Shown here: one piece after another, positions 3,339 through 24,400 of the stretch
How the letters are laid out: every line of letters starts with the position of its first letter
Numbering within the stretch: the stretch's first letter is position 1
Assembly (NCBI GenBank): GCA_964573405.1
Contig: CAZNJK010000004.1
Span: 22-64,021, forward strand
Direction of reading: 5' to 3'
DNA length: 64,000 nucleotides
Origin: an uncultured Christensenella sp.
GTDB lineage: Bacteria > Bacillota > Clostridia > Christensenellales > UBA1242
The notes under the pieces: generated by a model
Seen by the model: the letters and a program-made list of their open reading frames with translations, nothing else
The model's database searches: none
What the model was told of the DNA's origin: nothing
Made by a program: the position numbers and the translations under genes

Positions 3339-3377
3339 AAAAAAAAGGCTTACGGAAATTACTTCCGTAAGCCTTTT
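3339..3377 (-). terminator. Rho-independent terminator of giant ORF 1
   Basis: Perfect 13-bp stem AAGGCTTACGGAA (3345-3357) / TTCCGTAAGCCTT (3363-3375) with a 5-nt loop. On the minus strand it is followed by a T-run (the A-run at 3339-3346 on plus). It lies 45 nt after the TAA stop at 3422-3424. Confidence 0.85.
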
Positions 3378-3421: not shown

Positions 3422-6400
3422 TTATTTGTCAGCACTTCCCGAAGAAGTTGTATATATTGGGATGTCTTTATATTTCATAGTTATAGAAATACTTCCGCCA
3501 CCAGTTATGTCGATAGTCATACCGCTTGGAATGGTGCCAGTACTAGAACTATATTCATTTCTACTGAACACATAAGATTTCCTTGTTCCAGTTGTTTTGA
3601 TGTTATATATCGCTTTTTGCGTTATTGAACATATAGTGATTGTAACTGCTTCATTTGATCCCGATGCATCCGTCTTGTATATCGTGTATTGTAATTTGAA
3701 TGTCCTTGATACCACTCTCTCGGTAGCGGATATTTCTTCATCTGAATACAAATCATAATCTTCTACCCACTCCCAATGTATACACATATAGTACTTACCA
3801 TCACTACCTTTCCACGCTATGCAACATTCATCTTGCGGGTCATACTGTATATACAAGCCATTTTTACTCTCATCATAGAAATGACCCCATTCTTCACCAC
3901 GATACAAGTTATTAAATTCAGCTTCTGAGATTTCAATAACTGCATAGCCATCTTCACCATTAGGAATTCTATTATAATCTTGTTCCCAGTCCACAGCTGT
4001 CAAGTTAAACACATCACCCCATTCATTAAGTTCTTGAATGCTATATATGAATGTTTTAGTAGAATATTTATAGTTAATAGACGAAATTTCATAATATCGC
4101 CCATTGATTGGACCAAAGGATTTGAACCTAAAACTTACGCTACCAGTCGGATCGCTCTTAATTGTATCAAGACTAATAGTACCTAAGGATTTTTTTATAT
4201 CATCCCCATTGTCAGTTTGAGTTTTCCCAGCAATTTCCGTTATATATGCCGTTGCAAAGCCCCCCATTGAAGATGACCACTTAACTTTAAATTCTACTTC
4301 AACACCGCCAACATTTCCAGTATAAGTACCAGAGATTGCTTTTGCATTATATACATTGCTGAAGCCATATACTTTAGAATCAACTGTAGAGCCAACTATC
4401 TTATTACCTGCAATAGAGCCAACATATTGCTGTCCAAATACATAGCCGTTGTTGGTGTTAGTACCGCTTACAGAACTCACCCATCCAGCAATCCCGCCTA
4501 TATAATATTGTTTTCCAAAGATTGTTCCACTATTTGTATTATTTCCTTGCAAATGGGAAACAGAACCTATAATACCGCCCACATAGGACAAATCTCCCGT
4601 TGCTGTAACTTCGCCAGTGTTGGTATTTTTACCATACACATAACTATTTACCAGTCCAGCAATTCCGCCCACATGTTGCGGACCACTAACTGAACCATTA
4701 TTTGTATTTGTACCATATATCGATTGATGAACATAGCCCACAATTCCGCCTACATAGGTATATGAAGAATCAGACCCTTCAATTGTACCATAGTTGGTAT
4801 TTATTGGCGAACTTGTACTACTGCCAATATTGACACTATCTCCAACAATTCCGCCTACATAACTAGTACCCGTAATTTCTGGAGTATAAGTAGTGCCATT
4901 GTATGTGCCACCATTAGTGTTTGCACCCTGTATCGAATCCTTCACATAACCAGCAATTCCACCTACACTGTTAGCACCTGTCACATTGCCATAGTTTTTG
5001 TTAGTACCACTACTTACCGAGCCTTTTACATAACCAGCAATTCCACCTATATGGTTGCCAGTACCGGTAATTGTACCACTATTTGTATTAGTACCACTTA
5101 CCGAACTTGCCCAACCTACGATTCCGCCAGCATCGGAGTCGCCATTTGAGTCAGCACCTGCTGTGATTGTGCCACTATTTGTATTAGTACCACTTACATC
5201 ACCACCTACTTGTCCGGCAATACCACCGACACAATCAACACCTTTTACATCGCCGTAGTTTTTGTTAGTGCCATTTACATTATACTTCACATAACCTGCA
5301 ATTCCACCTACATTACTTGCAATAGAAAGAGTGTTAATAGTCCCATAATTTTCATTAGTACCATATACTGAACCATAAACATATCCAGCAATACCGCCTA
5401 TAAAGGTATCGCTAGAATTAGTCCCTTTAATCGTGCCGTAGTTAGTATTTGTTGGAAAGAGACTTGAATTTCCAATCGAAGAACATCTACCCACAATTCC
5501 ACCTACATAACTAGTACCTTTAATTACAGGGGTATAAGTAGTGCCACCATTAGTATTGGTTCCAAATACTGTGGTGCCGTTCACATAACCCGCGATTCCG
5601 CCTACATAGTTGCCGGTTCCGGTAATATTTCCAGTATTTGTGTTAGTTCCATATACTAAACTGTCCACAAAACCCGCGATTCCGCCTACGCACACTTGTC
5701 CACTTACTGAACCATTATTTTCGTTTGTACCATTTAGACTTTGTAGGAATCCGGCAATACCGCCCACTCCAGACATTATGCCACCCACTGCATCATCCCA
5801 AGTGCCCGATGAAGTAGCTGTTATTGTCCCAGAGTTAGTATTTTTAGTTGTTGAATCGAAACTAGATGCACTACCTACGATTCCGCCAACATCGTCACGG
5901 CCTGTTACATTGCCGGTATTAGTGTTAGTGCCATATACAACACTATAACACAAACCTACAATACCACCTACACCGTCACCGGTGCCGGTAACATTACCAG
6001 AGTTTGCATTTGTAGTAGAACTATTGCCAAACAAACCTTTTACATAACCCGCGATTCCGCCGGCATAGGAGTAATCATCTGAGTCTTTAGCTGTTGTGAC
6101 AGTGCCATTATTTGTATTTGACCCGATTAGGTCTGTATCTATATAGCCTACAATTCCGCCAGCATAGTTAATGTTTGCTGTTACTGTTGAATTATTTGTA
6201 TTGCCAGTAATAGATATTGTAGTAGCAGTGCCTTTCTCAACATATCCTACAATTCCGCCAGCATACCAGCCCACAGCATAAATTGTTGGAGTATATGTAG
6301 TACCATTGTATGTACCGCCATTAGTATTGTTTTTAATTGTTACATTATTACCAGGATCAATTACCCCACCTACAATTCCACCTACATAATAACAATAAGT

Positions 6401-9400
6401 AAAATAGCCATCGCTTGTTACATTGCCATAGTTTTTATTTTCTTCAATGATCGAAGCACTTGATTTTCCTACGATGCCACCTATATGGTTTTTACCATTA
6501 ATTTGTGCTAGGTTAACGCATTCACTAATTTTTATATTGTTTCCACCAAGGCCTACAATTCCACCGGCACTTGAATAACCAGATGTGATTATCCCTTTAT
6601 TTATACAGCCACTGATTTGTGCGCTACTTCCGAATGAATAACCCGCAATTCCACCAGCCGAGCCATAACCATTAGTTGAAGAAGATGTGCTTATTGCACC
6701 AGTATTTGTACAATTTTGAATAACACAACCGCTTCCACCCATCCAACCTACAACTCCGCCGGCATCACTGCCTTTATCTGTTGCACTATTTACTATCTCA
6801 CCACTGTTTGTTGTGGTTCCGCTAGTGCCACATATCTTACAACTCTCGGCTCTTCCTACTATTCCGCCTACACCGGACCAGCTTTCAGAGCTTACGGTTA
6901 TAGTATATGTATTTGCGGTGACATTACCGCTATTTGTATTGTCTTTCATATTTAGGCATTTTCCATAGCCTAGGATTCCACCTACTATTGTGCTAGTAGC
7001 GGTAATTGAACCACTATTGGTGTTTCCTGATACATTCGCATCGGCAGGAATACTACTTCCAGTAGCATAACTTCCGGCAATTCCGCCTACAAATGAGTGG
7101 CCATATACATTGCCTTTATTTGTGTTACCACTTACAGTAGGTTGACTAGCGATATGTCCTACAATACCGCCGACGTAGGTACCTTCTCTACTTGTAACAG
7201 TAGTGAGAATATTTATTTGTTTACCCGAAACTTCGCCACTGTTAGTATTGTTACTTACTGTATCACCATATATAAAACCTACAAGTCCGCCGACATATGT
7301 TCCTGCAAATTTATTATACGACTTATATACATATAAAGTGCCACTATTTTCGCAATTTGTAAGACTGCCATGCAATTCTCCTACAAGACCACCAGCATAG
7401 TTGACTACTCCATCATTCCAAGTTCCTTCTTCACGGATGTTTTTGTAATTATAACACTTATCGACATTTCCGTAGAACTTATATGTAATTGCCGAACTAT
7501 ACATTGCCGGAATACCCTCAGCAGTGTCATCCGCGTTCACAGCAAGTTCGGAATTGTTACTATTACTAATTGTTACATTAGATATTGATGAATATGTCCC
7601 TAACCTAGTTCCTTTTATTGTTTGTGTAAACCCATCACTAGTTGTACTAGGGCTTGTATCGTACGCATCAGCAGAATATCCTAAAATTCCGCTTACATAT
7701 CTAAATTCATTAGCGGTATATAATTTCCCTTTATATTTTCTCTCCATCTCAAATACACCACTAAAGGTAACGCCATCAGCAATAAAGTACCCTTCTTTGC
7801 CATTAGCCAGCGTTGTGCTAGCATCGGAATATTTTGCGATATTTACACTAGCGTGATATCCTACTGCTCCACCATATGCGGTAGAAGGGTTTCCGCTAAC
7901 GGAACCTATCTTACCATATGCATCTGCACTAACACTTGTTACATTACTCGTGCCATAGATTGTTGAACTTACTTTTGTTCCGTTATATATCTGGGTATTG
8001 AATCGGGCAAGACCAATTACGCCACCCACTGCGGATACATTTGAACCATTGTTGTTGAAATTCAACTTGTAGTAGTAATTATTGTCGTTATTGATGCCTA
8101 TATATGTCCTTTTGGCAGATGAATCAAAGCCATAGTCGGTCATCTTGGTTTTGTAATAGTTATCAATGTCATTTACATCACTACTGCTACTCATCTTTAC
8201 ACTGCCACTTACAGTAGCACCACTAACCGTAATGAAGTAACCTTCACCTGTTAGCCCACCTACTGCGAATTTGCCATCCACACTCACGGATGACTTAATA
8301 CTAGAGTAAGTAAGTTGTTGAGTTATTCCGCTGATAGTACCGCTGGTAGCAATAGAGAAGTTGTCGGCATAGCCGGTCAATGCTCCTACACGATAACCAC
8401 CCTTTACGTTACCACTTAAGTTAATGTTAAAGAAACTTAAGTTTTTGGAATAACCGAATAGTCCCACGTCGTTTGAACCACTTAAATTAATGTCGATTGT
8501 TCTCCTTGTATCACCTATAATCTTCGTAATTCTATTCCACGTACCGAATGGGAATTCTTTAGTACTTACGTTTCTATCTATAGTTCCACTAAAATTCAAC
8601 TTCATATTGAATGCTATTTCTTTGCCGTCGTTTCGGAAACGAAGCAAGTCGTATAGCCACTCGTTGAATTGCGTTTCGTTATCCAATACAGAGTAATTTC
8701 CATCATATTTTACACTACTAAGTAACACATCGCCTGGGCTTGACCAGTTGAATAAGAAGCCGGTGGTGATGTCTGATGTTCCACTCCTTACAGTCCTACT
8801 AGTCGTAGTAGTCACTGTAATTGCTTGGGTGTAATAGTCAGTATTTAAGGCAAATACACGAGCGGTGCCACCACTTGTAGTACTTACTTTATAATCATCA
8901 TTTACCTTGTACATATATGTGTAGAATCTGATTGAGACTCCCGAAGTTGTATCACCAAGATAAACACACCTTCTAGAATTAACCCAATTATTAGTTGATG
9001 TGTCATAACCACCTAAATACGCCGTTTCGTTAGTTAGCGAATCACTTGTAAAGTCTTGGCTAACCGTGCTAATATTCCCGTCTGATCCATCAGAGAATGT
9101 TATATTATAACTAGATGTTAACTTAGAATCTACATAAATTGCACCTGCACTAGTTGGAGTAAACTCCGCTTCTTTAATATATAAGGTCTTAGAATCATAG
9201 GTAAATGTTTTTTCTGAACCAGCCGTCCAACCAGACTCTAGCCTTCCGGTTGATAAGTTATAGCGGTCAACATTCTTATCTACATATGCTCCTCCACCTA
9301 TTCCATATGTAACCATAATGTTGCCAAGTCGATTTTGGTTAGTATATACACAGCCAATTATATTTTTGTTATAGTTATTGGCGTTACTTGACAAGCCATA

Positions 9401-12400
9401 CATTGCCACATATAAGTTGTTGACATCGGAGTTAGATAAGAATCCTACGGCGGTACCTATGTTGCCCGCTTTTTTATCGCGAGTCACATTGTAGTTTTCA
9501 TTAGGAACAAGCACTACGCACTCCTTAATTTCGCCATTGTACATATCGCCTACGATTCCGCCCATTGTTTGACTACCGGCATTGTCATCGTCCGTTGTTC
9601 TATACGAACTAAGGAAAGTCCTTACAATACAACTTGCGATATTGTTGTCGTTATCGGCCTTTGTGCCATCAGCGTGACCTACAATTCCACCCATAACGGC
9701 ATCGTTGCCGTTATTGACAATATCTACATCAAATACTTCGCATGATGCAATTGTGCTACCACTTGTTTCGCCTACAATTCCGCCCATGCGGGTCTTTGTC
9801 CAGCCTGGGATTCTTGAAGAGATGACAAAACTGCTCTTATTTGTAGTGCTAGAGTCGTTGGTTAGGTTATAACCTTCGACTTTAATATTTGCGATTATTG
9901 TGCCATGCTTTGTATTACCGGATTTTCCGGTTTCGCCAATGCCGGCATAACCTACAATTCCGCCAATACGGACTACTTGTTGACCAGAGCCTTTTTCAGT
10001 GCTTTTGCTATTGTTTAGTTTTACATAATGATATATTGGCGAGCCATCACTAGCCTTACTTATGACTTCGATGTCTTGGATAGTGCAGTTGCCTACACAA
10101 CCCGCAAGTAATCCAGCGTAGCCTTCATCTCCGTTTTTAGGCTCTATAGACACTCTATTGCCTATATATGTGTTACCTTTCTTAGTGCCACCAAACTTGA
10201 TGTTTTTGATAGTAGCACCACGGTCAGTAGATTTTTCACCACATACTGCACCGAATAGTCCGGAGTAGTAGTTCCCGTTATTGGATTGCACTCCCGCACA
10301 CGACATACCGGTGATTGTATGTCCTTGACCGTCGAATGTACCCATAAATGGATGATTCGAAGTCCCGATAGGGGTCCAAAGCATACCTTTATCGTCGTCT
10401 TGTTCCATAAACGACCTTGCACTTGATGGCATTGTGCTTAGATCAATATCGGAAGTTAGTTTGTATGTTTTACCACTAGTACTTCCGCCATTATTGACAT
10501 AGTACATAAAGTCAGCAAGGTCATAGGCACTTGTGATTTTATAATACCCCCCAGTACTGTCGTATTTTGGACCACTCCTGACCTCATAGTAAGGATTACC
10601 GCTCGCCTGTGACAATGCCACATCGTACCAGTTGGTATAGTTTGCGGTGTGAAGGGTTGGGAACCCGAAGTTGCGGGTGATTCCGTCAGTGTCGGTATTT
10701 GTTGTGCCGTCGGCATTATAGCCGTTGCCGTACTTCCCCGCGCCCCAGTTGTTAATGAAGTCAAATTCATTAAGGGTTGTTTCGGCGTTGTAGCCACGGT
10801 AGTTTTTCAATTCAACATTATTATAAGTTTCAGTATTAGTTCCAGGACCGCTGTTGACAACAGTAATGTTTGTGACATATCCGCTTTCTTGAACAATAAA
10901 TACATTGCCTTTAGTCGACATAAACTTAGTATACGGACTAGAAACATTAACATTAAGGTATCCGCCATTTTTGTTGTACTTACCATATACAATTTTACCG
11001 CTCGGATTGGTGATAGTCCCATCATCATTTGCGACTGTATCGTTATATGAATATGCATATGAGTAGTAATTTGTAACAGTTATACTACCTATAGAACTTG
11101 AGTTGCTTAAAGCATACATCTTATATCTACTTTCGGATGGATCTACAAAACTCTCTACTGCGACATAGCAGTCGTATATATTAAGGGTGCCACTTACAAC
11201 ACCTACTAATGCACTTACATGATTGCTAGTTTTCCCGTTGTATGCGCTATATCCTTCTACACCTACACGAGATAGTCTTGCAGAATATCCGCTATATACA
11301 TTACCAATTATGGAGCCCATATTAACAGCATTGTTATCAGCGTTTGTTCGTGCCTTATTTGAAAATACCGTAGTGACATTTCGGAAAGTCACATCTGCAA
11401 TTGTTGAGTTCGCAGTGCGGAAGAATCCTATATTGTGCATATTGTCTAGGATCATTACATTGCTAATTGTCCAGCCCCCAAACTCGATATATGCATATAA
11501 GTCCACTGGCGTCCAGATTTTGCCACCTAGGTCGATTGCAGAGTCTCCGGTGTATTTAATTATGACATCCGCCTTATTATAAACTAGTTCACCAGTATTA
11601 TCGCGATAATAAAGTGCATATGCCAACTCTTCAGCACTATTAATTTCGACATAGTTGCTAATAATGGTACCTTTTATGGTCAATGGATCTGATGTTGGGC
11701 TCTCGCCTACCCACTTCCAACTATTAGAGTAAAGTTGTTTGTCATTGAAGTGGTCTTTTTCCATTGCCATTAGTGTAACTGGCACTGCACTGCCATCGTC
11801 GTTGGTTGTGCGGTTCCATGTAAATACATTAACAAGGTCAATTTTTTCACTGTTGTATAGCGAGTCGATATTGAATTTGTAATATGGCACACCCGCTTCG
11901 GTATATGCAATATATTTTGGTAATTCATTTGTAAAGTTGTCGTATGAATAATATATTTTACTCTTGGATAGATCAGATCTTGATGAAATATCTACCCACA
12001 CTACTGTATCAAGATAAGCCATACAATCTATCATATTTGCATTTCTTAATGCAGTAAGTCTACCATCTGTGTTACTGCGCCATAAGTGAGTGACTTTTGA
12101 CTGAATAATCCCCGCCTTGTCGCCGGTTGAGGAGAACATTGTTCCATTTGCATTGTTAAAGTTGAAGTAGCAGTACATAAATATGCCGTTATTTGTTCCT
12201 ACGAATGAATTACTGGTATGCTCAAATATTCCTACTAATGTACTACCAATAACCACACCATTATTTGTTCCAATAGATGGATGTGTTATTGAATAATCCG
12301 CATTAGCCTTAAGTCCTACAACATATCCGTTGTTTTCTGATATCACTTTGACAACATCTTCAGTCTTATGCATGCCTGTTGTCTCATAGTAACCATTATA

Positions 12401-15400
12401 AGTACGTAACCCATGTACAATTGACCATTGGTCGATTGTGCCTATATGCCCGGTGTGTTCAAAGTAATATATGGTTGAATTAGTCAAGTTAGCTCTACTA
12501 ATGCTGGCCGTATTCTCGTTGTCTGTTATGATGTACGCTTTGTCTGTAACATTTCCGCTAATTGTGGCGATTGTTTCTGGATTTATTTTAGTACCTTCCG
12601 CTTGGGTGTTTGTGACCGTAGCCTGAGCACAACGATCAACATCAGAACCCACCTTGAAAGTAGTGTTGTAGTTTTCTATCCAATCTAGTAGTGGATATGA
12701 GTTGCCTTTAACAGTCCAGTTGACATTTCCAGTGAATGCTTTTTGACCAACTCCGCCACTCTTCAACAACTCTTCACTAGTGTACCCTGTGCCATAGTCG
12801 TTGGTGATTTGTAGCATATCCTTGTTGTATATGCAGTTTGTAATTTCGGTACCAATACTACTACTTTTATAATAAGCACCCACAATTCCACCGATGTAGT
12901 TAGGCTTATATTTATCTTCTTGATCCACCGTGTCGTATTCAGCGCCATAGGACATTGTAATCAACTTATTTAATGCGTTGATATCGCTAGCATTGATGAC
13001 AATGCTTCCGGTATATAGTAGGTTTACGCCTTTTAAACATGCGGTTCCTACAATTCCGCCTACTCTTAGGTCAGCGTTATAACTTGTAGTGTTCCCGACT
13101 GTAAGGCCGGTGTAATTAATACGGATGTTGCTAGAAGCATAGCTATCTTCCACTGTTAGAAGCGATTCAATACTTCTACTCGAACTAACTCCTGCCCAGC
13201 CTACAATTCCGCCTATTGAACAATATCTGCGATAATTAGACCCCCCATCATCTTTTACGGATGACGCATCATTATTAGGCTTGTAATCCGCTTCGATATT
13301 TACATTAGTAGCACACTTCTTAAATGTCGGCAAGGAATTGGCATTTTCATATACTTTTGCTTCGCCGACCAATCCGCCGATAGTGTATGCGGTGTTGTTG
13401 GCACTTATGTTGCCACCTACATAGCACTGCGATATTTCGTTGGCGGTATCGACAACTGCACTAAGACCACCTATTACAGATGCTGTAAGTTTATATGAAG
13501 AATTACTACTATCCTCATTTAATTGGACATTATTTAAGACTACATTTGTAGTTTTTTCTGCTCTCAAATATCCTGACAATCCGCCGACGATGGAGTTGGT
13601 ATTTGATTTTACCTTAATTTCGCCCGAAGCGATGATTGTGTTTATTGTTGTAGCACCTTCATTAGAGCCAAACAATCCGCCTAGGCTAGTCTGATGGTTA
13701 CCTGTTCCGTTGATTGCTTTATATGTTACTTTAGTGTCGCTTGCGACATAAACATTTTTAATGCAACTACAACTTTCGTACTTACCTATAAGGCCACCGG
13801 CTGAGATTTGCGTGACATAGGACGAGTTTACATTTACATTGATTTCGCCATTGATGTACCATTGCCCCGAAGTATTATCTTTATCACTAGTTTCTCCTTC
13901 GCCAATTGAAACACCTTCCGATTTTCCTATAATGCCACCGATATTGGCTGTCATTTTGTTATTATTTATTCTACCATCAGTTATTCCTGAAGATAAGTTA
14001 ATAGTACTATCAATTGTCACTTCGTCATTAACAAGGAATTTGTTAAGTTTCAAAGAGCCATTTATGTAGCCGAAGTATCCGCCTACACACACTCTTCCGG
14101 TTTCTTTATTTGCTAATGCAACATCAAAATCACTAGTAGATAACGTCTCTTTAATTTCATCGTTAGTTGTAAATTCAGTAGTAATTGTGACTTTTGATAC
14201 TTCACCTGCAAATGAGTGAGGATCAAAGTTTGTAGTGGATTTGCCCGTAGATGTTTTTGAACCCGCCAATTTAATATATCCAAACAATCCGCCTACATAC
14301 TGCTCGTTAGTAGCCCCTTCACCATCGCCGGTAACATTAAATTTAAGGTTGTACGCTCTAAATGCACTTGGTGCGGTGTATAATTCATACTCTGTCGTAG
14401 CACCACTCTTTTTCAAGTAATATGCTTCACCACCATCTGAACTTGGGTTAAGAAGCCCATCTGTTGTTGCTGTACTTATCTTACCATATTCCAATATTGT
14501 AGTATCGGAGTATCCCGCAATGCCACCTACATATTGTGCACTTGAAGTGATTGTGCCCGAATTCGTAGAATTAAGTGTGGCTGTAAATGTCTCATAAGAT
14601 GTATGAAATTTTGGATGAATATTTACATTATGACTCCCTTCTACTATCACTCCAATTTCATTTACACTGTCCGACCACTTATCTCTAGTGCATTCGTCGT
14701 TAGTGCTATAGTCTTTACTACTTCCATATATGGAGATATTCTCAAATGTTGTCTGAGTAGCATAGCCGACTAATGCTCCTACATATTGCATATTGTGGCT
14801 ACCGCTAGTCTCAACTCCGGAATCTATATTCTTAACAACGATGTTAATATTCTTAAATTTAGCATTCTTCGTATAACCAAATATGCCTAGATACTGATCG
14901 TTATAACTTTTACTAATCGTGCCATCTTCATCATCTGTTTGGCGCTTACCAACATCTAATTCTAGTCCATATATTGTATATGTCCTATTTTCAGTAATTA
15001 CATTACCACTATCGATTATCGAACCAGAACTTCCAGTTGTAGAACTAGAACTTCCAGTTGTAGAACTAGAACTTCCGGTCGTAGAACCAGTTCCTGACCC
15101 CGTTGTTGTGCTAGACTCTTCCGACCCGTTATCAGTTATTCGAGCACTTCTTAGTGTGCCCATAAATGGATTTGATGCTGTTCCTACCGGGGTCCAGTTG
15201 CATTTATTGTCCCATACAATATCTGCCATCAAAACAATCTCATACGATGAGTTATTGAGTGCATTAATACTTGCATCTCCTTGCAATGCTTCCTTTAAGT
15301 CATCAAAATTATATACTAGAGTTGCAACCTTTGCTATGCTAATATGCTTAAATTCTGGGAATAGGTACTCGGTCTCTTCTCTTTGACCTTCACTATTGAT

Positions 15401-18400
15401 TGTTATACCATGCCAATATTTAACTGCCCAAGCAGAATATATAGATATTGCTTGATATGATAATGCTGTATCATATGAAGTAGTAACAGAGCCGTCAGTA
15501 TCTGTTGTTTCAAGTTCTCCGTTTTCAATAGAATCAACATTCTCGGTATAGGTAGACCCTATACGCTTATAAAACTCATTTGCTTCTTCGTAATCATACT
15601 TTCTTTGATACAATTCGTTAAGACTACGCATAGAACCATAGAATGTCATACGAGATACAATGTAATAGGAAGTACTTTGCACACTACTTCTATATTTTAG
15701 TGACATTAATCTTACACCACTAGATGTTGTTGTGAAATAGTTTGAATTATTATAACTTTTACTGTTTTGACTTGCCAAGTTGTAAGTACCGTCAGCATCT
15801 AGATCCTCGTTTTTTCCATATATAAGCCAATTAAACGATTCTTTCATATCGCCACTATATACTTCATTTTTCGTGCTATAATTTTGAATTTGAGCACCTT
15901 GGTTACCAAATTCCTTGGCAATATTTTGGGTCGCTTTCTTTAACGAAATATAAGTGTATGTTTGCTTGTAATAAATTCCATCAGACGAGATTCTACCACT
16001 AAGTGCTCTTGTTTCTCCTAAGATTTTTCTTAATTCTTCTTCTGCTGAAAATGTATTTGTTGTTGTTTCAGTTGATGGAAGTCCACACACATACCCTACG
16101 AGCATTCCCATTGTTGCGTCAGCCAAGTTAGGGTTGGACTGCGTGCCACGATTTAAGTTAAGATGTGAGTATTTCCAAATATTTGCACATACAACTTCTC
16201 TAAACATTACTTTGTTTTTAACACTACCATACTCTGGGGATGTGTAGATAAAGTATTTAGATATGAAATTATCATTTGCAAAATAATTAATTTCGGACTC
16301 GACTTCCCATGTGGAGCCGACTTCTTGTCCTTGAATGTTAAATGTTATTTTAGAGCCACTAACACCTCCAGTAGTGTTATGTCCACCCGAAGCGATACCT
16401 ATAAGTCCGCCAAATGCTTTGTAGCCTTGGACTGAGCCAGTGACATACACTTCGATATAAGAACTTCTAATATTTAAGCCCGCAATACCGCCCACATATA
16501 ATGACTCGATATTCGCGACATTTACTCGGTTGTAACATTTTTGGATTTCTCCGCCGATGTTCATCCCGACTAATCCGCCTGTGAAGATTGCGTTACCGCT
16601 GAATAGGTTTTGGACGCCTATATTGTAGTCGACTGTTGCGTTGTCGTACTTTTTGGTGTTTTTGCTTATATCTTCGTCAATATCTTCTTGGTCGTAATTG
16701 CCAACGACACATCTTAGAAGTGAGCCTTCGTTGTGACCTACAAAGCCACCTACGACTCTGGAGCCTTTTAGCATCATTCCGTCTTTTGCTTTCAATTCGC
16801 AATCGGATACATTAGAATTGCTCGATAGGAATCCAATCAATCCGCCCACAACTTCGCCTTCTACTGAAATTTCGCCGGATGTTGTAAGTCTACGAAGTCT
16901 GTACATTTCGTTTCGGATATTGTCGATGTCCGCAAATCCTAGGCTCGAGAACTTGTTATTTATACATATTCCCACGATTCCGCCAGCATAACTTACTTTC
17001 TTTAGGTTGTCGGCGTCGTATGTATAACTTACTGGGATTGCCGAACTAGAACCCGATGTAGAAGTCGTGGTCGCACTTCCAGTTGTCGTGGTTGACTTGT
17101 TGCTATCGTAGTTGTCGTAGCCACCACCCAACCCCGATTTTGGTGTAAAGGCGTTGAATGTCTGAATCTTCTTAATGTCGCCCACAGCGCTTGAGAACGC
17201 GTTGTATTGATAATAGAAGTTGGATTTAACCGACACATTACTCTCAATATTTACTAAGTCTGTTTCGCCCGAAATAATACCAGCCACAGCACCTACAGCG
17301 TTAAGTCCTTGCACGACATATTGTTCGCCCGTAATTTTGATGTTGAAGATTTTGCCGTCTGTAATTTCTCCGGCAAGAACTCCAACCATATTTATATTTC
17401 TTCCGTTAATTTGATTAACTTCGATGTTTAGGTTTTTAACAACCGCATATTTTGATGGAACTCCCGCACTACTTACGGCTTCACCCTTAATTGCTTTGAA
17501 TAGTCCTAGTCTTGTAAGGTTGTCACCATCAGCCTTAACTTCGTCACCGCTAATTCGCAAGTTTTTGATGGTCATTCCGTTTCCGTCAAGTTTTCCTTCA
17601 AATGTAGAACGATATGTGGTTGAAACTTCATCATCATTTGTAAAGGTGATTCCATTAACAAGACGGAAGTTTCTGTTGTCCTTTGTTCCACTTATGACGG
17701 AGTTGTTAAATGACTCAGCCGATGTGATTAGCAATGGATTGATTACCGAGCCTTGCAAAGAATCAACTTCTTCGTAGCCAGTACTACTTGATTTTGGAAT
17801 GTATATATGTTCAACATATCCAAAAGTGTATGCTCTTACTTCATCGTCATCGCCCGCCGAACTGTAACTTGTTGCTCCGACCATATATCGGATAGACATT
17901 GTGCGTTGGTTAGCGCTCACAAGTTGTGGATAACGGCCACTATAATCCGATTCTTTGAAGTATTTTAAATAGAATTCGTGTGCGTTCCCACTAGATATAA
18001 ACCATACGCCGTCCAAGATTTCGTAGTTTTGAGCATAGTCGTTGTTGAACGCGTAGCTTGCGAATGTAGGATATGACTCGAATGAAGCCTTTTCCAACGA
18101 ATCCGCAACATCTTCTGACATATTTGATATTTTAGAGTCATATTGATAGAAGCACTCTACAATTCTATTTTTGTCATCAACATTAATCTTTTTAATGAAA
18201 GGTGTATTTGTTGCGACATTTATTTGGACACTGCTTATTGCGTAGCAGTATTCGATAAGTGCGTCGGCGCCTGTGCTACTATAAGCAAATCCGCTTGCAT
18301 AGATACCCGAAACTAGAATCTGTGCATAGCTGTTGCTGATTGTTCCTGTATTTTCATATACAAAGCCACCTGCATAACTATTTGTCACAATTCCAGAATT

Positions 18401-21400
18401 CTTATAATTTGCTGTGGAAAATTTGGTGCTAAGGTCACTGTCAGAGATTCCAGTAATGTTACTGGTACTGCGACCTTCAACATAGCTATAGTAAATCTCA
18501 CCACTATTTCTTGAAACTAAGCCACCACAACCGCTGTTGATTTTTGTGGTTGAGTCGCCTACTATATTGCCACCCTTGAAATAACTACTGCTTATGATTC
18601 CAGTGTTGTATCCTACAAGGCCTGCAACATAGTCTTCGCCGTTGATACTTACATTCTCAACGCTACTATTTGTAATATTTCCTATATTTTGACCAACAAG
18701 AAGTGCGATGTTGTTGCCACGGCTGGTGGTTTCGTCTTTACTATTGAACATATAACTTACACGAACCGTGTCGACGCTACTTATATTTTCGAATTTTTCA
18801 ATTGCGTAAGAGAAATTATCTCCTGAGCCCTCAAGGTTAATCTTGCCCCTACTTGCGCTAACGTTATTCAATGATTCATTTCTAATTGTGCGAAGTTCTG
18901 TAGCACAATTGACAATGCTAATATTTGTAAGGATTCCGTAGTTTGCACCAGCCAACAATCCGAAGTTTGTGGATGTTTTTAATGTGCTTATATCTACATC
19001 TAAGCTTGTAGAATACACTGTGCTACTACTTATCTTGTAGTCATTTTTAATCGTACTATTTACAACATCATCATAGTCTTTGTCAGAACCCACGAAATCA
19101 AACGGCATTGTACTTGGATTGACTTCGATTGTTAAGTTTTTGATGATAGTGTTTTCACTTATAGTGCTAAATATTCCAATGTTGTAGCCTAGGTCGTCTT
19201 CTTTTAAGTTCATACCCGACACACTTGCGAATGACACAATTGTCAAGGCGTATCCGTTGCCGTCTAGTGATTTGAATTCAGCCTTTATAGGTTCCCAAAG
19301 TACTAAGTACAAGTCTTTCATAAGAATGTAGCACTCACCCTTTTCCATTGTCTTAAATTCGTCAACCGTCATTATTGGCTTTGGATTGGTTTCGTCGCTA
19401 TATGCATATACCGTAATCAAAACATAGTTGTTAAATATGAATTTTGAATACGATTCGCTAGAAACTTCTATGCCATTTGTGGTGTAATTAATTCCCACAT
19501 CTGCCCATAGGAAGCCGGTCATATATGTGCTCAACATTCTTAATACAACCGAATTATTGGCACTATCGTACTTCAAGTACATTTCTCCACTAAATTCATT
19601 TCTTCCAGGAACAAGAAGTTTTGTTCTGTCTATGCTTGTTCCTTGGCTCAAAATAGAGAAGTTTTGAACATTTGCGTGGATTTGAGCATTTATATTTTTT
19701 ATTTGATAAGAAATATCGCTATCTCTATAATTTTTAGTTAGCCACTCGGAGTAGCCTGCGCTATATTCTGCAGTTGCCGTAATATTTAAATCATACATTT
19801 GATAATAATCGGCAATGATTTGATAACCCGACCTATCTACTCCGTCTAGGTCTATATTTATGCCAGTAACTCTAAGTGGAACTAGCAAGAATTTAATAGA
19901 AGCCGAATCTCTAACTCTCATTCCATTGATTTCTTTATATCCAGCAATCTCAAGAGTAAATTCTCTATACATAAATTGATGGAATATGTTGTACACATAA
20001 TTTGAGTCGCCTACTCTGAATTTAAGGCCATTAGAATTTACAATGCTCCCCAAAACATCCATATAATCATAATTACTTCCTACTGTTTTTAAGGTTGCAA
20101 CATAATCTCCGTCAAGATTGGATGTAGAAATAGATATATTAACAAGGTCGCCGAAAGTAATTTCTCGAGTATCTGTCGATATGCTTACGCTTGGACGAGC
20201 CTCAATATCTAGAATTGCACTCTCTTCAAATAAAGGTGTGCTTACGCCATTTAAATAACCTTTGACCGTAATCTTTGTGGATGCTCCCGAAAGATTGGAA
20301 TTTGCGGTAAGTGCAAAGTATAGTGTTCCGTTGTAGCCTTTTTGTCTACTTGGGTCACTTAATTGATCTTTGTAAGAAAATCTTGCAATTGTCTTTATAC
20401 TATTGATGCCGTTAACATAGGTTTGTCCGTCATAATAGTATTCAAACCACGAATATTGGTTGCTGTTGCCGGAATTGTATACTTCAAGAACTTGGTTAAC
20501 TGCTATTCCGCCTTGGCTGGACTCAACTGTAACATAATCAAAGCGTCCAAAACTTGGGAACAGGTCAACTTGTAGTAGGCTTGTAAGTCCTGGGATAACA
20601 ACCTTTGATGGGTATTTGTAACTATCATAGTTAACTGTTCCAGATATCGCACTGTTGTTGTCGGTAACAAAGAATACATTTGTATAATGGTTTAGATATA
20701 TTCTTTCCACATCTTGTGGCAAAATATTAATGTTCATTTTGTGGAAAAATTCTTCTTTGTCCACTATTTTAAATACTAATTCGTACTCATACTCCATTTG
20801 AATTAGATTTTGCTCGGACTCGTCAATATCTGCACTGAAAATGTATGTTTTTAATTTCGTAATGGAATTAAACGATACATCTTCAACGGTCAATGTCAAA
20901 TATCCCATATCTCTATAAGACATTATTATAGTTTGACCTTTAACAAGTTCGTCAATACTACAAACATTTGTGGTGTCACCATTAACGATTGCTGAAAGGC
21001 TAACTACTGGTGAGTCTGTATCGGAACTAACAACCACGCTGAATTGATTTCTATCAAGTGCGTAAATGCTAAATCCGTCGCTACCAGTAATTCCATACAC
21101 TCCTGGAGTGAATGTAAATGTAAGGCCTTTTTCTCCACCATATTGTTTGCATTCGCGTCCATTGTAAGTGTATTTGAAGTATTTTGATACTGTTACATTG
21201 ATTTTGCCTAATATAGCGCAAGATACAGCCTGAGAAAGTCCATCAACTTCTATTATTATCTCATCTCCGTCTATATACGAATATGCGCTACGACCAGCAA
21301 TATTTAGCGATGTTAAAAATTCATTAACGGTTTTTCCATATTCCAAGTCAGAAATGCTATTCTTATCAAATACATATCTAACCCCAAATTGATAAATGCC

Positions 21401-24400
21401 TTTATAACTATTAATGTTGGTTGTTAGCAATTCACCATCTTCAACAGGAATATTTAAATTATTGCCGTCAATTGTGCTATTTATTCCGCCTATGTTGATT
21501 GTTTCGTCTACATCGTGACCAATCACAATAATATCAAATTTGACTTCCAATCCGTTCAACTTCGTGCGGATTGTTAGTGTTGATTGACCTTCCCCAGCCA
21601 AAACAATTTGCTCTCCATCAATGGTGAACACTCTGGAATTGCTTGATAGGTACCTTAGTTCCTTATCTGCAAGTTCTGGAATAACATTTACATTAATAAG
21701 GTTGCTAATTGTTATTTTTTCTCCAACACTTCCCGTTATATACAATGCTCCGTTAATGTCAGTTGGACAAGAAACGCTAAGTTCATGTTCTTTTATATCT
21801 GCAATAATTTCATTTGGTGGAATTTCCGCTACTAATTCTGGGATTGATGAAGTCACATCAACATTAATATAATTAGCAAAAGGAATAGGATATCCATTAA
21901 GAATATTGTCTTGGTCATCAGCGGATGTATTAAAGTACCACTTGTATCCGCCAGTTTTAATTGTGCCGTTATTGTCGTCATCATTAAGTGCTGTGCCACT
22001 TGATACTATATATGCCACTTGGCTATTAGAAGCCCTACTCACATCACTTGTGCATTCATACTTCTTGTTTAATAGGAACTCATCCCCAACAGAAACCCCA
22101 TAAGTATGAAATCCTAGTGTTGTATCTGATGAATCTGTAGTTTTCCAATTGCTAGCATAAGTACCTAAAAGTGCGCTTAAATTCTTTCCTGTGCCATCAA
22201 TATATCCTTCTACATATTCTAGACCCGCAACACCCACATCAGGAGTAATATTTATGTCAACATTACTACCCCATACAACTTTCGAAATCAAGTTGTCGTA
22301 AATTGTATAATACTTCGATATATCAGTTTCATCACCCGATTTGCTTACTTGAGAATAGTAGTCAAAGTTATAATCTACGCTCGATACTGTTATAGCGGTT
22401 ATTTTCTTTGCATTGCTTTCTATAAATGTATGTGCTACTTTGCCAACTTCAGCAAGGCTTGGTGTTGTCCCTGTTGAAGTATCGTCCTTAACCACATTTA
22501 CTTGAGTTGTAAATCCCATATAGAACGAATTGCGAGCAGTTACATTTGGATTGATGTAAGTCCTTTTAACACTATCGGAAAGACCATATATCTCTCGATC
22601 ACCTACACCAGCAGAAGAGCCTAAAGCTACTTTGATTTTATCATTATCTGTCCATTCACATGTCAAATCTGAAGAAGAAGTGTAGTTTTTTGTTGTTCCG
22701 TTGTCCAAACCGTCAAAAGTAATTGTGTAAGTTGTTAAAACTGACATTTTAATATATGTCGTTGTTGTTTTATCAATTGCTTTAAATGTGATTTTTAATG
22801 CATGCGTACCATTATGCTCATAATGTCCCAAATAGATATTAAGAATTGATTGATTGCTATTTGTAACATCTTTACTAACGGTTTCGTTCTCGCCGGCAAA
22901 GTTTTGAATAAACTCTGCGGTTTCGCCAAATTTAGCGTGTTTGAATATAGTGTAAGAATTTTCGATGTTGTAGTTTGTAATAGCGCTAGTTAATTCAACC
23001 GTTTTATCGATTTCACTGGTTCCCGGATAAACACTATCTTCGTAAGTTATCAATCCTTTAGGGGCTCTGCCTACAAATCCACCAATTGTAATTTCATCAT
23101 CATAATTAACTAGCCCGTCAACTCCCGAATACTTAATTGAAAGGGTTGCGCCGTCTTTCACATTCCCAGCAATTCCGCCATAATAAATGACTTCACTGCC
23201 TGTGCCTAATGATGGCTTATATACTGCGACTTTAGCATTGAAATAACTGCTTTCAACATTTAGTGCTGTTCCTACATATCCTACTAAGCCACCCACATTA
23301 GCACTTGCATTAGTTTGCACTAGGATGTTGCCATTAAAGTAGGCGTCAGAGTCTTCACCAACTTTCTTCATTTCGTACTCAGTATAATCAACTACACTAG
23401 AGTATGTGATTGATATATTGGCTTCAGCACGACCTACAAGACCACCCACATCGTTAGTTCCAACAATTGAAGAGCGATAGGCTCTATCGAAATCGGATTT
23501 TATAAATTGCACTTTGCAAGAATCTAAAGAAATGTTTCTTGGAGATTGTCCTACAACTCCACCTACTCCACTATTACCCTTTACATAGCCAATTACGGTA
23601 GCATTAGATAGTTTTGAACCGCTACCTTCATTATTTCCGACAACTCCGCCTACTTTATTGCCACCAATTATGTACGAATAAGCGGTAATATCACTTATAT
23701 CAGTAGAGCCATCGGTAATCATACCAATTATACCGCCAACTCCATCATATGACGAACTGGCAAGACTGCTTTTTGGAACTGTATTGATTACCGAATATGC
23801 GGTTAATTTGCTAACGGTTGCATTATTTACCCCAGCAAAACCACCAACTGCGGTACTGTTACTGTCACTTGAATATATGCTAACTCTAATCGATATATCT
23901 TTTGCAGTGCCGTTAAAATAACCAAACATTCCACCAATTATGCCATTAGTGGCGTTATTTGTATACAATATCCCGTAGCCTTTTATCGTTGTGCCAAAAT
24001 TACTAATATTTGAATCTGAAGGGTTGAAATTAATGTACTCAGCATTCGAGCTATCTATAATCATACAAGAATTTATTGTTGTTGCCATAGCATAACCAGC
24101 CAAAGCGCCCACATAGATTGTATCGCCTGTCGCCGAAACATTAATTTCAAAATCTTTCAAGCAAATATTCTCAAATTTCGCACCACTAACATATCCAAAC
24201 AATCCGCAATACGCGTTCCCCGTATTGTCTCCCGATTTCTCGATTTTCAAATTGTAGATGTTGTACATTTCGTCGTCTTTCGACTTCAATCCGCCCGTGA
24301 ATGGCTTGTCGTAAGTGCCTATAGGCGTCCACGATCTCTTATCCATATCGATATCGGCGATTAATCTGTAGTATGATGTTAGGTCGCTATGCATTAGGTC

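Follow-up and report, generated by a model that had tools for sequence, protein, structure and literature searches.

The ORF1 locus

The window analysed here, a 64,000-nt stretch of a metagenomic contig from an uncultured Christensenella sp., contains a giant gene, ORF1 (3422..28291, minus strand), that forms a single open frame of 24.9 kb, encodes 8,289 amino acids (aa), and houses an array of short repeated coils at its 3' end. The translation begins with a lipoprotein signal peptide (28220..28291, minus strand) that includes the lipobox L-V-A-C (Cys24); the N-terminus reads MERLKKVLIVLVMAMVSVVGLVAC followed by GE, i.e. MERLKKVLIVLVMAMVSVVG-LVAC-GE, in agreement, by eye, with the lipobox rule [LVI][ASTVI][GAS]C. 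Judging from this pattern, the ORF1 product is predicted to have an N-terminal lipid anchor. The signal of ORF2 also ends, by eye, in a lipobox-like sequence, ...LGFTAC. ORF1 is followed by a terminator-like hairpin (3343..3377, minus strand; a 16-bp stem and then a T run, 45 nt past the stop codon), and rpoB, which starts at 2864, has a promoter of its own, separate from ORF1, with a near-consensus sequence at 3071-3043 (minus strand). The genomic context of ORF1 is Firmicutes-like.

The giant surface-protein genes upstream of rpoB differ almost totally among relatives whose RpoB proteins are 93-95% identical. In blastp comparisons with the giant ORFs of two close relatives (L003 and L008), the only patch kept is aa 6444-6696 (41-47% identity), the head of the last beta-helix module (8204..8962, minus strand); against a third (L009), the same residues align only inside a longer 30% match. 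This variability is the pattern expected for a fast-evolving, host- or phage-facing surface in an uncultured Firmicutes lineage. The head consensus in the homolog alignment ends in a motif that resembles the one in this head, 'GLF....G.V.NL'.

Beyond the coils lies a C-terminal tail of 307 aa (aa 7983-8289; 3425..4345, minus strand). It has no matches among 1.84 billion representative proteins and no credible Pfam or NCBIfam family, and an AlphaFold2 (AF2) model built without an alignment was uninformative (pLDDT 39.6). Since the lipoprotein signal is at the N-terminus, the array and this orphan tail would together lie farthest from the membrane, as the tip of a cell-surface fibre of 8,289 aa; in our reading, a giant, hypervariable surface protein has the array as its distal stalk and bears an orphan C-terminal domain. 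A 307-aa tip domain with no detectable relative is a side result of some value.

Coil anatomy and relationship to GLUG repeats

The array consists of 32 coils (aa 6966-7982) with a core-to-core spacing of 26-41 aa; positions 4380-7400, where the initial annotation placed about 31 uninterrupted GLUG coils, correspond to aa 6964-7971. That description is borne out, since the sole interruption by non-coil sequence is a 7-aa partial duplication of the core in coil 16, VGGIMSG (aa 7502; 5768..5788, minus strand); pLDDT falls below 50 a few residues downstream of it, at model residues 561-566 (aa 7511-7516). A GG core is present in 31 of the 32 coils, the last coil being degenerate (VGSIAG), and the strict core [VIA]GG[IVL][VA]G occurs 29 times in the array, against 0.06 expected and a maximum of 2 in composition shuffles.

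Core positions and coil similarities, together with best matches in other proteins, divide the array into two parts. Coils 1-10 (aa 6966-7302; 6386..7396, minus strand) are heterogeneous and GLUG-like, and few of them have the signature GTNTN. Coils 11-32 (aa 7303-7982; 4346..6385, minus strand) are homogeneous, with the consensus VGGI[AV]GYV..(S)V.GTNTN.G.[VI].G..., and the GTNTN signature clusters in this amplified distal part, being present in 15 of the final 20 coils, at a place where the homolog consensus shows C.N.G. Counted over all 32 coils, GTNT is present in seven, the looser G.N.N in 15, and N.G.[VI].[GAT] in 22. The array had been described as a near-crystalline solenoid; this is apt for the last 20 or so coils but not elsewhere, with GTNT in just seven of the 32.

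Three coils carry a long insert, and these landmarks lie where they had been reported, with TNGGT(YNGT)TYTP at aa 7324, 7582 and 7791 (window positions ~6322, 5548 and 4921). Landmark A is NTNGGTYNGTTYTPTIYAV (aa 7322-7340; 6272..6328, minus strand), landmark B is NTNGGTTYTPVIKGTS (aa 7580-7595; 5507..5554, minus strand), and landmark C is NTNGGTYNGTTYTPEITGTS (aa 7789-7811; 4859..4927, minus strand). Landmark C shares DNA repeats with both of the others, and is 85% identical to landmark A over 48 nt. Landmarks A and B are separated by 258 aa, and landmarks B and C by about 209-216 aa (seven coils).

An AF2 model of the array, built with a 41-sequence alignment, is confident and rod-like (pLDDT 84.2, pTM 0.80) and consists entirely of short strands, about three per coil, in keeping with the solenoid of GLUG-like coils that had been described; its continuity, handedness and hairpin placement are read from the pTM and the DSSP string only. 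Extra strands are present at landmark A (model residues 376-389).

GLUG is the sole Pfam family anywhere in ORF1 when the protein is searched in 1,000-aa slices. The array itself does not reach the Pfam gathering cut-off for GLUG (PF07581; 20.5 bits): aa 6951-7977 score 15.3 bits (E = 0.027) over five stretches, and the 1,000-aa slice search of aa 4292-7291 gave no Pfam family. Five of 31 single coils match GLUG, with a best E of 0.0054. Repeats above the cut-off are found in two other modules of ORF1, one detected at aa 1334-1833 (35.8 bits) and again in the slice aa 1001-2000 (26.8 bits), the other in the slice aa 3001-4000 (33.5 bits), and a profile of 31 coils aligns with the Pfam-positive GLUG repeats of ORF1, over 12 core columns only (hhalign probability 85.6%, E = 5.6e-6). 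The array has 629 homologs, reaching E = 7.5e-53; PF07581 is precomputed for most of them, and the domains that accompany it are those of surface proteins (Flg_new, M26_N, T9SS tail and Big_2). The GLUG label given to the array is thus a loose one, as other modules of ORF1 pass the Pfam threshold but the array does not.

Repetition within the array and across the family

The initial annotation proposed that the array is made up of three super-repeats, ~215-255 aa long, in which 8-9 coils follow one another in a shared order, that these arose by recent segmental duplication, and that recombination between them could alter protein length between strains. The recurrence of the landmarks, 258 and 209 aa apart, is consistent with this proposal, as is a diagonal of DNA repeats spaced 648 nt apart between units B and C (75% identity over 113 nt, 88% over 57 nt), on which the best 150-nt in-frame stretch begins at 4746 and is 71% identical. 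Units B and C are collinear over their first three coils (aa 7563-7660; 5312..5605, minus strand, in B, and aa 7776-7873; 4673..4966, minus strand, in C) at an offset of seven coils, with coil similarities of 0.58, 0.57 and 0.46, and these coils share more codons than expected, although the excess is modest (36 of 58, versus 24 expected). Collinearity between the two units is limited, however, to the first two or three coils and one later pair; unit A has only the landmark in common with the other two; and the coil counts per unit are 8, 7 and 7. Across all 32 coils, period-7 similarity was beaten by one of 5,000 shuffles of coil order, but for the homogeneous last 21 coils the figure was 92 of 10,000 for offset 7 alone and 1,212 of 10,000 with any offset from 2 to 12, and removing the landmark coils abolishes the signal in these 21 coils (0.401, against a background of 0.392). 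Thus, the landmarks recur and a super-repeat diagonal is present, but the diagonal ends after two or three coils and the shared order does not extend through whole units.

Nor do the copies look young. Protein identity between units B and C is 55%, and DNA identity over aligned codons is 61%; 57 of their 109 identical residues use the same codon, where codon usage alone would give 43. Exact direct repeats reach at most 26 nt in the array and 30 nt in the whole of ORF1, only eight 21-mers are repeated in the array, and Tandem Repeats Finder reported nothing for positions 4300-7500. The best coil partners, moreover, lie at mixed offsets of 1, 3, 7, 11 and 14 coils. Given the low identity of the copies and the shortness of the exact repeats, we conclude that the duplication is not recent and that the array is a poor substrate for recombination; on the sequence, the super-repeats are old and partly ordered, and three recent units of the kind first proposed are improbable. 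A contingency-type, recombination-prone tandem repeat was also considered and rejected, as long near-identical DNA copies are absent (71% identity in the best 150 nt). The array should not be presented as a recombination hot spot. The same observations bear on whether the number of coils could be an artefact of repeat collapse or expansion during assembly. The window is from a metagenomic contig, the neighbouring proteins on record are from contigs of 74,775 bp (NCBI) and 58,103 bp (Logan), and the exact ORF1 protein is absent from the protein collection. Nevertheless, exact repeats in the array never exceed 26 nt, which is below the usual assembly k-mers, all of the coils are unique in sequence, and the 24.9-kb frame remains open, such that an artefact is very unlikely. 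The divergence of the DNA copies and the resulting credibility of the assembly, both claimed at the outset, are therefore upheld on sequence grounds.

What is evident is relatedness within the gene. When compared with 1,621 coils from other proteins, 19 of the 21 coils in aa 7303-7931 have their best match inside the array, whereas this is true of none of the first ten. The distal 21 coils therefore look amplified or homogenised within the gene, and growth inside the gene, as had been suggested, or homogenisation there appears to account for the distal two thirds of the array.

The spacing of the landmarks has a parallel outside ORF1. A 7-coil unit of ~200-230 aa with one long-insert coil was found in 43 of the 120 best homologs, indicating that it is a trait of the family; since it is common among homologs from other taxa, the periodicity is likely to be inherited rather than peculiar to ORF1. 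Examples with tandem 7-coil units of 198-237 aa and the same coil type as ORF1 include P0001, P0005, P0009, P0014 and P0018. In each homolog unit, a single long-insert coil follows the pattern 'N.G + 16-18 aa + Y.GG..G', which the landmark coils and the 216-aa spacing of ORF1 fit. In several homologs that we inspected, the units are far better kept, reaching 66% identity when offset by one period, over 3-6 copies; by contrast, only the landmark coil and its follower retain position-specific identity in ORF1, and once the long-insert coil is set aside, the ORF1 units show weak similarity, position by position, to those of the homologs. Anchors and accessory domains also differ between these proteins and ORF1. 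Long GLUG arrays seem to be built of a recurring 7-coil unit, for which we found no description in the literature searched, and this offers a handle for domain definition and structural work. Long GLUG arrays are common in gut-type anaerobes. Tentatively, the 7-coil unit with its hairpin-bearing long-insert coil could be a conserved building block of GLUG beta-helices, placing a protrusion every ~3.4 nm along the rod that could serve in lateral packing or bind a periodic ligand; the ORF1 copy might then be a degenerate one, overprinted by a lineage-specific amplification of coils from which a new ladder surface of T-N-T-N residues and an orphan tip domain arose.

Proposed role and comparison with known beta-helices

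We consider it likely that the array is the distal part of a long GLUG-type beta-helix that serves as a rigid surface stalk or display structure and has an old, two-layer origin. Each coil of 26-41 aa would contribute about three short strands, the invariant G-G...G of VGGI[AV]G would make a tight turn, and the N.G and T-N-T-N residues may stack into ladders; with a rise of ~4.8 Å per coil, the whole set of 32 would stack into a rod ~15 nm long. Ten older, heterogeneous coils would represent one layer of its origin, and ~21 coils, amplified or homogenised in the gene in blocks of 1, 3, 7 and 11 coils, would represent the other. Landmarks 7-8 coils apart would be a remnant of the family-wide 7-coil unit with its long-insert hairpin coil, and the copies are old, their synonymous sites being near saturation. 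The surface location follows from the putative lipid anchor, and from the architecture we infer a stalk or adhesin-like, non-enzymatic role, with the array acting as a rigid stalk or as a display surface for adhesion.

Two other roles can be envisaged for such a helix. Threonine/Asx arrays are seen in ice-binding and carbohydrate-binding beta-solenoids, and in the last ~20 coils, stacked T-N-T-N and N.G ladders could likewise present a flat, regularly spaced hydrogen-bonding face to a periodic ligand, for example a polysaccharide or glycan lattice. The array-specific distribution of GTNTN, where homologs have C.N.G, and the composition of the region (20.8% glycine, 12.2% threonine, 11.0% serine and 10.7% asparagine) are compatible with such a face, but the asparagine ladders of beta-helices are often internal and the homologs have no known ligand, making a binding face an unlikely reading. 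The array could instead be catalytic, as part of a polysaccharide lyase or hydrolase or as a depolymerase of the tailspike type; Foldseek lists inulin, alginate, fucoidan and capsule lyases, a polygalacturonase and phage tailspikes (E = 2-9, probability 0.06 or lower). Against this, no enzyme family from Pfam or NCBIfam is found across ORF1, the coils are short and regular and lack the long loops of active-site grooves, and the better fold matches are to non-catalytic helices of IgA1 proteases and to the Fap2 adhesin; a catalytic role is thus highly improbable, and a stalk or display function remains the reading that we favour.

All of the Foldseek matches are weak (E = 6e-3 or worse). The top-ranking structure, 3n6z (probability 1.00, E = 6e-3), is a putative IgA1 protease from B. 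ovatus, the second is the beta-helix of the Fap2 adhesin (9qe7; 1,259 aligned columns), and the other leading matches are to IgA1 proteases of S. pneumoniae and G. haemolysans. When the PDB was searched by sequence, the same IgA1 protease was matched at residues 190-347 of its chain (E = 0.003), which fall within its N-terminal-domain (NTD) beta-helix (PMC7695701); the N-terminal helices of M26 IgA1 proteases are built of GLUG-related repeats (PMC4021314, PMC7695701). Together with 3n6z, the M26 helices (6xja, 6xjb and 7jgj from S. pneumoniae; 7uvk from G. haemolysans) are the best solved sequence or fold matches (E = 0.003 to 0.2). Unlike the ORF1 array, however, these helices are short (~270-290 aa) and control access to the active site of a protease, whereas ORF1 has no M26 catalytic domain and, apart from GLUG, no other Pfam domain. 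We rejected an M26 IgA1 metalloprotease for ORF1, having found no peptidase family, the catalytic Peptidase_M26_C (HExxH) included, in any of the 1,000-aa slices or in the tail.

The helices of Fap2, pertactin and TpsA/EtpA-type proteins are, like the one predicted for ORF1, long surface rods of many similar coils, with which ORF1 shares no detectable sequence homology. Those of the Fap2/pertactin/TpsA type depend on type V export in diderm bacteria and on anchoring through either a partner protein or a barrel at the C-terminus, whereas ORF1 has an N-terminal lipobox, an orphan tail without a barrel family, and a Firmicutes-like context. A type V autotransporter or TpsA protein, which would have a C-terminal beta-barrel translocator or an N-terminal TPS domain, was also rejected, as neither the first 1,000 aa nor the last 289-325 aa match any Pfam or NCBIfam family.

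For long GLUG arrays, we found no function or structure in the literature; an adhesin role has been proposed for GLUG proteins in gut archaea (PMC9723798). The array and GLUG (PF07581) share a unit of ~28-30 aa, a V-G-G-[LI]-x-G core and an N.G turn, and differ in that the array has GGI[AV]G instead of GGLxG, a GTNTN signature that lies outside the homolog consensus, and an unusually long run of 32 coils. The ORF1 array is an ordinary, if very large, case of the known GLUG repeat type.

The coil array and its place in ORF1

Window positions 4380-7400 are the 3' end of a single minus-strand open reading frame, ORF1 (3422-28291; 8,289 aa). Since window coordinate = 28291 - 3 x (aa - 1), the array described in the initial annotation corresponds to aa 6964-7971. 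The N-terminus read from the translation, MERLKKVLIVLVMAMVSVVGLVAC|GE, is a signal peptide with a lipobox at its end. ORF1 contains at least six beta-helix modules, near aa ~1321, 2999, 4366, 5593, 5972 and ~6600; five of the six have a head of the W.P[IV] type ('W.P[IV]G...F.G..DG.G..I..L....GLFG'), as at the start of the homologs, and the sixth, at aa ~6600, is without the W.P motif. The array forms the end of the final module, which is also the longest. Directly upstream of ORF1, ORF2 (28794-48482, minus strand; 6,562 aa, lipobox ...LGFTAC) encodes another giant lipoprotein, a paralog (24-25% identical) that has GLUG-like cores and no array comparable to that of ORF1 at its C-terminus. Near its C-terminus, ORF2 carries its own Asn/Ser/Thr-rich repeat region, which is different in kind. 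On the other side of ORF1, rpoB (minus strand) begins at 2864 and continues beyond the edge of the window. A strong terminator-like hairpin on the minus strand (3377-3343; 16-bp stem and T run) lies 45 nt past the ORF1 stop, and a near-consensus extended -10 promoter for rpoB (3071-3043, minus strand; TTGACT-17-TG-TATAAT) lies ~180 nt before 2864; ORF1 therefore closes its own transcription unit. The remaining genes nearby are of common chromosomal kinds (Mfd, Pth, HtrA, M23 peptidase and CAAX proteases). The named RpoB relatives are a 'Firmicutes bacterium' (77% identity) and Clostridia or Christensenellaceae (63-64%), which places the source in an uncultured lineage of Firmicutes type; papers in which the source samples are named say nothing of their environment. 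The exact ORF1 protein is absent from a collection of 15 billion proteins that includes its neighbours, from a 74,775-bp NCBI contig and a 58,103-bp Logan contig; possibly the gene was called in another way there, or omitted for its size.

Counting cores that match [VIA]GG[IVL][VA]G or close variants, we placed coils at aa 6966, 7000, 7040, 7068, 7103, 7141, 7177, 7212, 7242, 7270, 7303, 7344, 7377, 7410, 7441, 7468, 7509, 7535, 7563, 7596, 7631, 7661, 7688, 7721, 7748, 7776, 7812, 7847, 7874, 7904 and 7931, followed by a degenerate final core, VGSIAG, at aa 7957. The array is real as claimed: there are 32 coils in all, spaced by 26-41 aa, and there are 29 matches to the strict core where residue shuffles predict 0.06. 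A 7-aa partial duplication, VGGIMSG, is found at aa 7502. The three TNGGT(YNGT)TYTP landmarks, long-insert coils that had been used to divide the array, are exactly where they were first reported (aa 7324, 7582 and 7791). The description of the array as near-crystalline was overstated, as the full motif is limited to its distal part: N.G.[VI].[GAT] is present in 22 of the 32 coils, GTNT in only seven, and the looser G.N.N in 15, every one of them among the last 20.

GLUG is the only Pfam family detected in ORF1, with scores of 35.8 bits for aa 1334-1833, 26.8 for aa 1001-2000 and 33.5 for aa 3001-4000. The array region itself scores 15.3 bits, below the 20.5 cut-off, and five of 31 single coils match the family. 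A profile of 31 coils nonetheless matches a profile of the Pfam-positive repeats of ORF1 (probability 85.6%, E = 5.6e-6, 12 core columns), and a search with aa 6951-8289 recovered 629 proteins (best E 7.5e-53, 27-36% identity), with named sources among Clostridia and Bacteroidales MAGs. Most of these matches are annotated with PF07581, together with Flg_new, M26_N, T9SS tails, Big_2, lectin and other surface-protein domains. Given the sub-threshold score and the homology to PF07581 proteins, we conclude that this is a divergent GLUG array. An NCBIfam search gave nothing credible. Membership of the M26 proteases was rejected, as ORF1 has no M26 catalytic domain, as was membership of the autotransporters, as there is no autotransporter barrel family and the tail has no homologs. 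Searching 4,000-aa halves of ORF1 with hmmscan returned no Pfam family, whereas slices of 500-1,000 aa give GLUG above threshold; the empty result is an effect of length or of the bias filter, which matters when annotating giant repeat proteins.

Super-repeats and growth within the array

Cutting the array at its landmark coils gives unit A (aa 7303-7562; eight coils), unit B (aa 7563-7775; seven coils) and unit C (aa 7776-7982; seven coils, counting the degenerate last one). The initial annotation had described three units of eight to nine coils in the same order, which overstates both their size and their collinearity. In a coil-by-coil matrix, B and C are collinear over their first three coils (similarity 0.58, 0.57 and 0.46) and at one later pair (7721/7931, 0.57), and unit A resembles B and C in its landmark coil only. 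Self-blastp of the segment returned the identity match and no repeat match, and our repeat analysis rests instead on our own diagonal and coil-matrix computations. In an ungapped protein dot-plot the longest diagonal runs at an offset of 216 aa, and single-coil matches just as strong occur at offsets of 185, 339, 94 and 406. The sole extended DNA diagonal is at the equivalent 648-nt spacing (75% over 113 nt, 88% over 57 nt). The best in-frame 150-nt DNA window is 71% identical, and the DNA of landmarks A and C is 85% identical over 48 nt.

Shuffling of coil order gave mixed results. A period-7 run across all 32 coils was matched by one of 5,000 shuffles, a test that gains from how heterogeneous coils 1-10 are. 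For the last 21 coils, the offset-7 mean of 0.397 (against 0.34) was reached by 92 of 10,000 shuffles, and by 1,212 of 10,000 when any offset from 2 to 12 was allowed to win. Once the landmark coil and its follower were removed, the offset-7 mean was equal to background (0.401 and 0.392). Given these tests and the limited collinearity, the super-repeat is real but thin; it is a recurring landmark block of two to three coils.

Recent segmental duplication, and with it a substrate for length variation by recombination, had been suggested for these units; neither is borne out by their divergence and by the shortness of their exact repeats. Between units B and C, identity is 55% at the protein level and 61% over aligned codons. 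At identical residues the two share 57 of 109 codons, with 43 expected from the codon usage of the region, and 36 of 58 (24 expected) over the first three coils, such that synonymous sites are close to saturation and what signal remains lies in the landmark block. Within 4301-7500, exact direct repeats reach at most 26 nt, only eight 21-mers recur, and Tandem Repeats Finder reports nothing in the array region. The same figures make assembly collapse unlikely, and on this point the view that the assembly is believable stands. For slippage or changes in length, a Ser/Thr/Gly linker at 15021-15090 (aa ~4401-4424; a 21-nt unit x 3.3, 91% match) would be a stronger candidate than the coils: it is the sole true DNA tandem repeat of ORF1 and contains the longest exact repeat in the gene (30 nt).

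The proposal that the repeats arose within the gene does hold. We compared each coil with the rest of the array and with an outside pool: 1,621 coils drawn from the upstream ORFs of five relatives and from the top 60 homologs, together with coils found elsewhere in ORF1 and in ORF2. For each of the first ten coils the closest match is outside the array; for 19 of the last 21 it is inside, despite the outside pool being ~fifty times larger. Closest partners are found 1, 3, 7, 11 and 14 coils away. This pattern indicates that the distal two thirds of the array (aa 7303-7957) was amplified or homogenised within the gene, in blocks of mixed size; the amplified coils are those with the GTNTN signature.

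The seven-coil unit in homologs and the rpoB locus

The consensus of the homolog alignment repeats about every seven coils. Autocorrelation detected a clear self-similarity period in 54 of the 120 best homologs of the array region; the period is 185-239 aa in 43 of the 120, with a mode of 222-230. In stacked views the units stand three to six in tandem and are 40-66% identical when offset by one period. Of six parsed proteins (P0001, P0005, P0009, P0014, P0018 and P0036), five have seven coils per unit; P0036 seems to have eight. Each homolog unit has one long-insert coil, 'N.G + 16-18 aa + (S)Y.GG..G', the putative counterpart, by motif, of the ORF1 TNGGT(YNGT)TYTP...SYVGG coil. When the units of four homologs are anchored on the long coil, mean coil similarity peaks at register 0 for five of six pairs, and still does so, weakly, for four of six with the long coil excluded; ORF1 against the same four homologs gives a weak register signal. 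Given that the unit is common in the family, as sampled by homologs chosen for their similarity to the ORF1 array, the 216-aa spacing in ORF1 is best read as a probable eroded copy of a shared unit rather than as a change peculiar to ORF1. We found no description of a seven-coil higher-order GLUG unit in the literature searched, and we consider this recurring unit to be the most useful lead from the analysis.

Giant GLUG ORFs lie directly upstream of rpoB in all seven relatives whose rpoB loci we compared: L003, L004 and L006-L009 (RpoB 93-95% identical) and L005 (89%). DNA similarity to the window stops at ~3115 in L003-L005, for which this was checked. The proteins of L003, L008 and L009 share with ORF1 only the head of its last module (aa 6444-6696), at 41-47% identity in L003 and L008 and as part of a longer 30% alignment in L009; the match to this head is only 27% in L006 and L007, and L005 has none. 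The arrays of L003, L008 and L009 are 28-30% identical to that of ORF1, are shorter, have different tails, and in some cases are split over two ORFs, such that even in the closest relatives available (RpoB 93-95%) the arrays are non-orthologous to that of ORF1. In L003 (ORFs ending at 6009 and 9645), as also in L008, the counterpart of the last module is split, with the head apart from the array and tail. The array-plus-tail ORF is 1,137-1,270 aa long, and the L003 copy holds a run of unknown residues; the split may be genuine, or may reflect a gap in scaffolding, a frameshift or a pseudogene.

The tail of ORF1 (aa 7965-8289; 3425-4399) is an orphan domain at the membrane-distal tip. A search of 1.84 billion representative proteins gave it no match at E <= 0.001, neither Pfam nor NCBIfam offered a credible family for it, and a scan of GTDB genomes with the last 514 aa found no ortholog, only a 31% match in Prevotellaceae. 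An AF2 model of the tail made without an alignment was uninformative (pLDDT 39.6). Given the near-complete divergence among relatives, the site next to rpoB looks like a hypervariable surface-protein locus, as far as these comparisons go.

Predicted structure of the array

An AF2 model of aa 6951-7977 from a 41-sequence alignment (pLDDT 84.2, pTM 0.80) consists of short strands only, about three per coil, with low confidence confined to a few long loops and both ends; the landmark coils contribute extra strands (e.g. model residues 376-389 and 840-858). The model argues for the 1,027-residue array region being one rigid body, of which we infer the continuity and the handedness. The solenoid first read from the sequence is upheld by the prediction, and beta-helices, at E = 6e-3 or worse, rank highest in Foldseek searches of the PDB. 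We propose that the array is most likely the distal stalk of a continuous GLUG-type beta-helix in a giant surface protein that is lipid-anchored at its N-terminus. The structural part of this reading is well supported by the model; we infer the role as a stalk or in adhesion. The beta-helix of the array would present the orphan tip domain away from the lipid-anchored N-terminus.

GLUG is described as being of 'unknown function, may have a role in adhesion' (PMC9723798), and GLUG repeats have been linked with the solenoid of IgA1 proteases (PMC4021314). The lower Foldseek matches, with non-significant E-values, are lyases, tailspikes and pertactin. The top PDB match is a putative IgA1 protease of Bacteroides ovatus (3n6z; probability 1.00, E = 6e-3), and the other best matches are the beta-helix of the Fap2 adhesin (9qe7) and the IgA1 proteases of S. 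pneumoniae and G. haemolysans. Searching the PDB by sequence led to the same IgA1 protease (chain residues 190-347, E = 0.003), and these residues fall within the NTD beta-helix that PMC7695701 describes.
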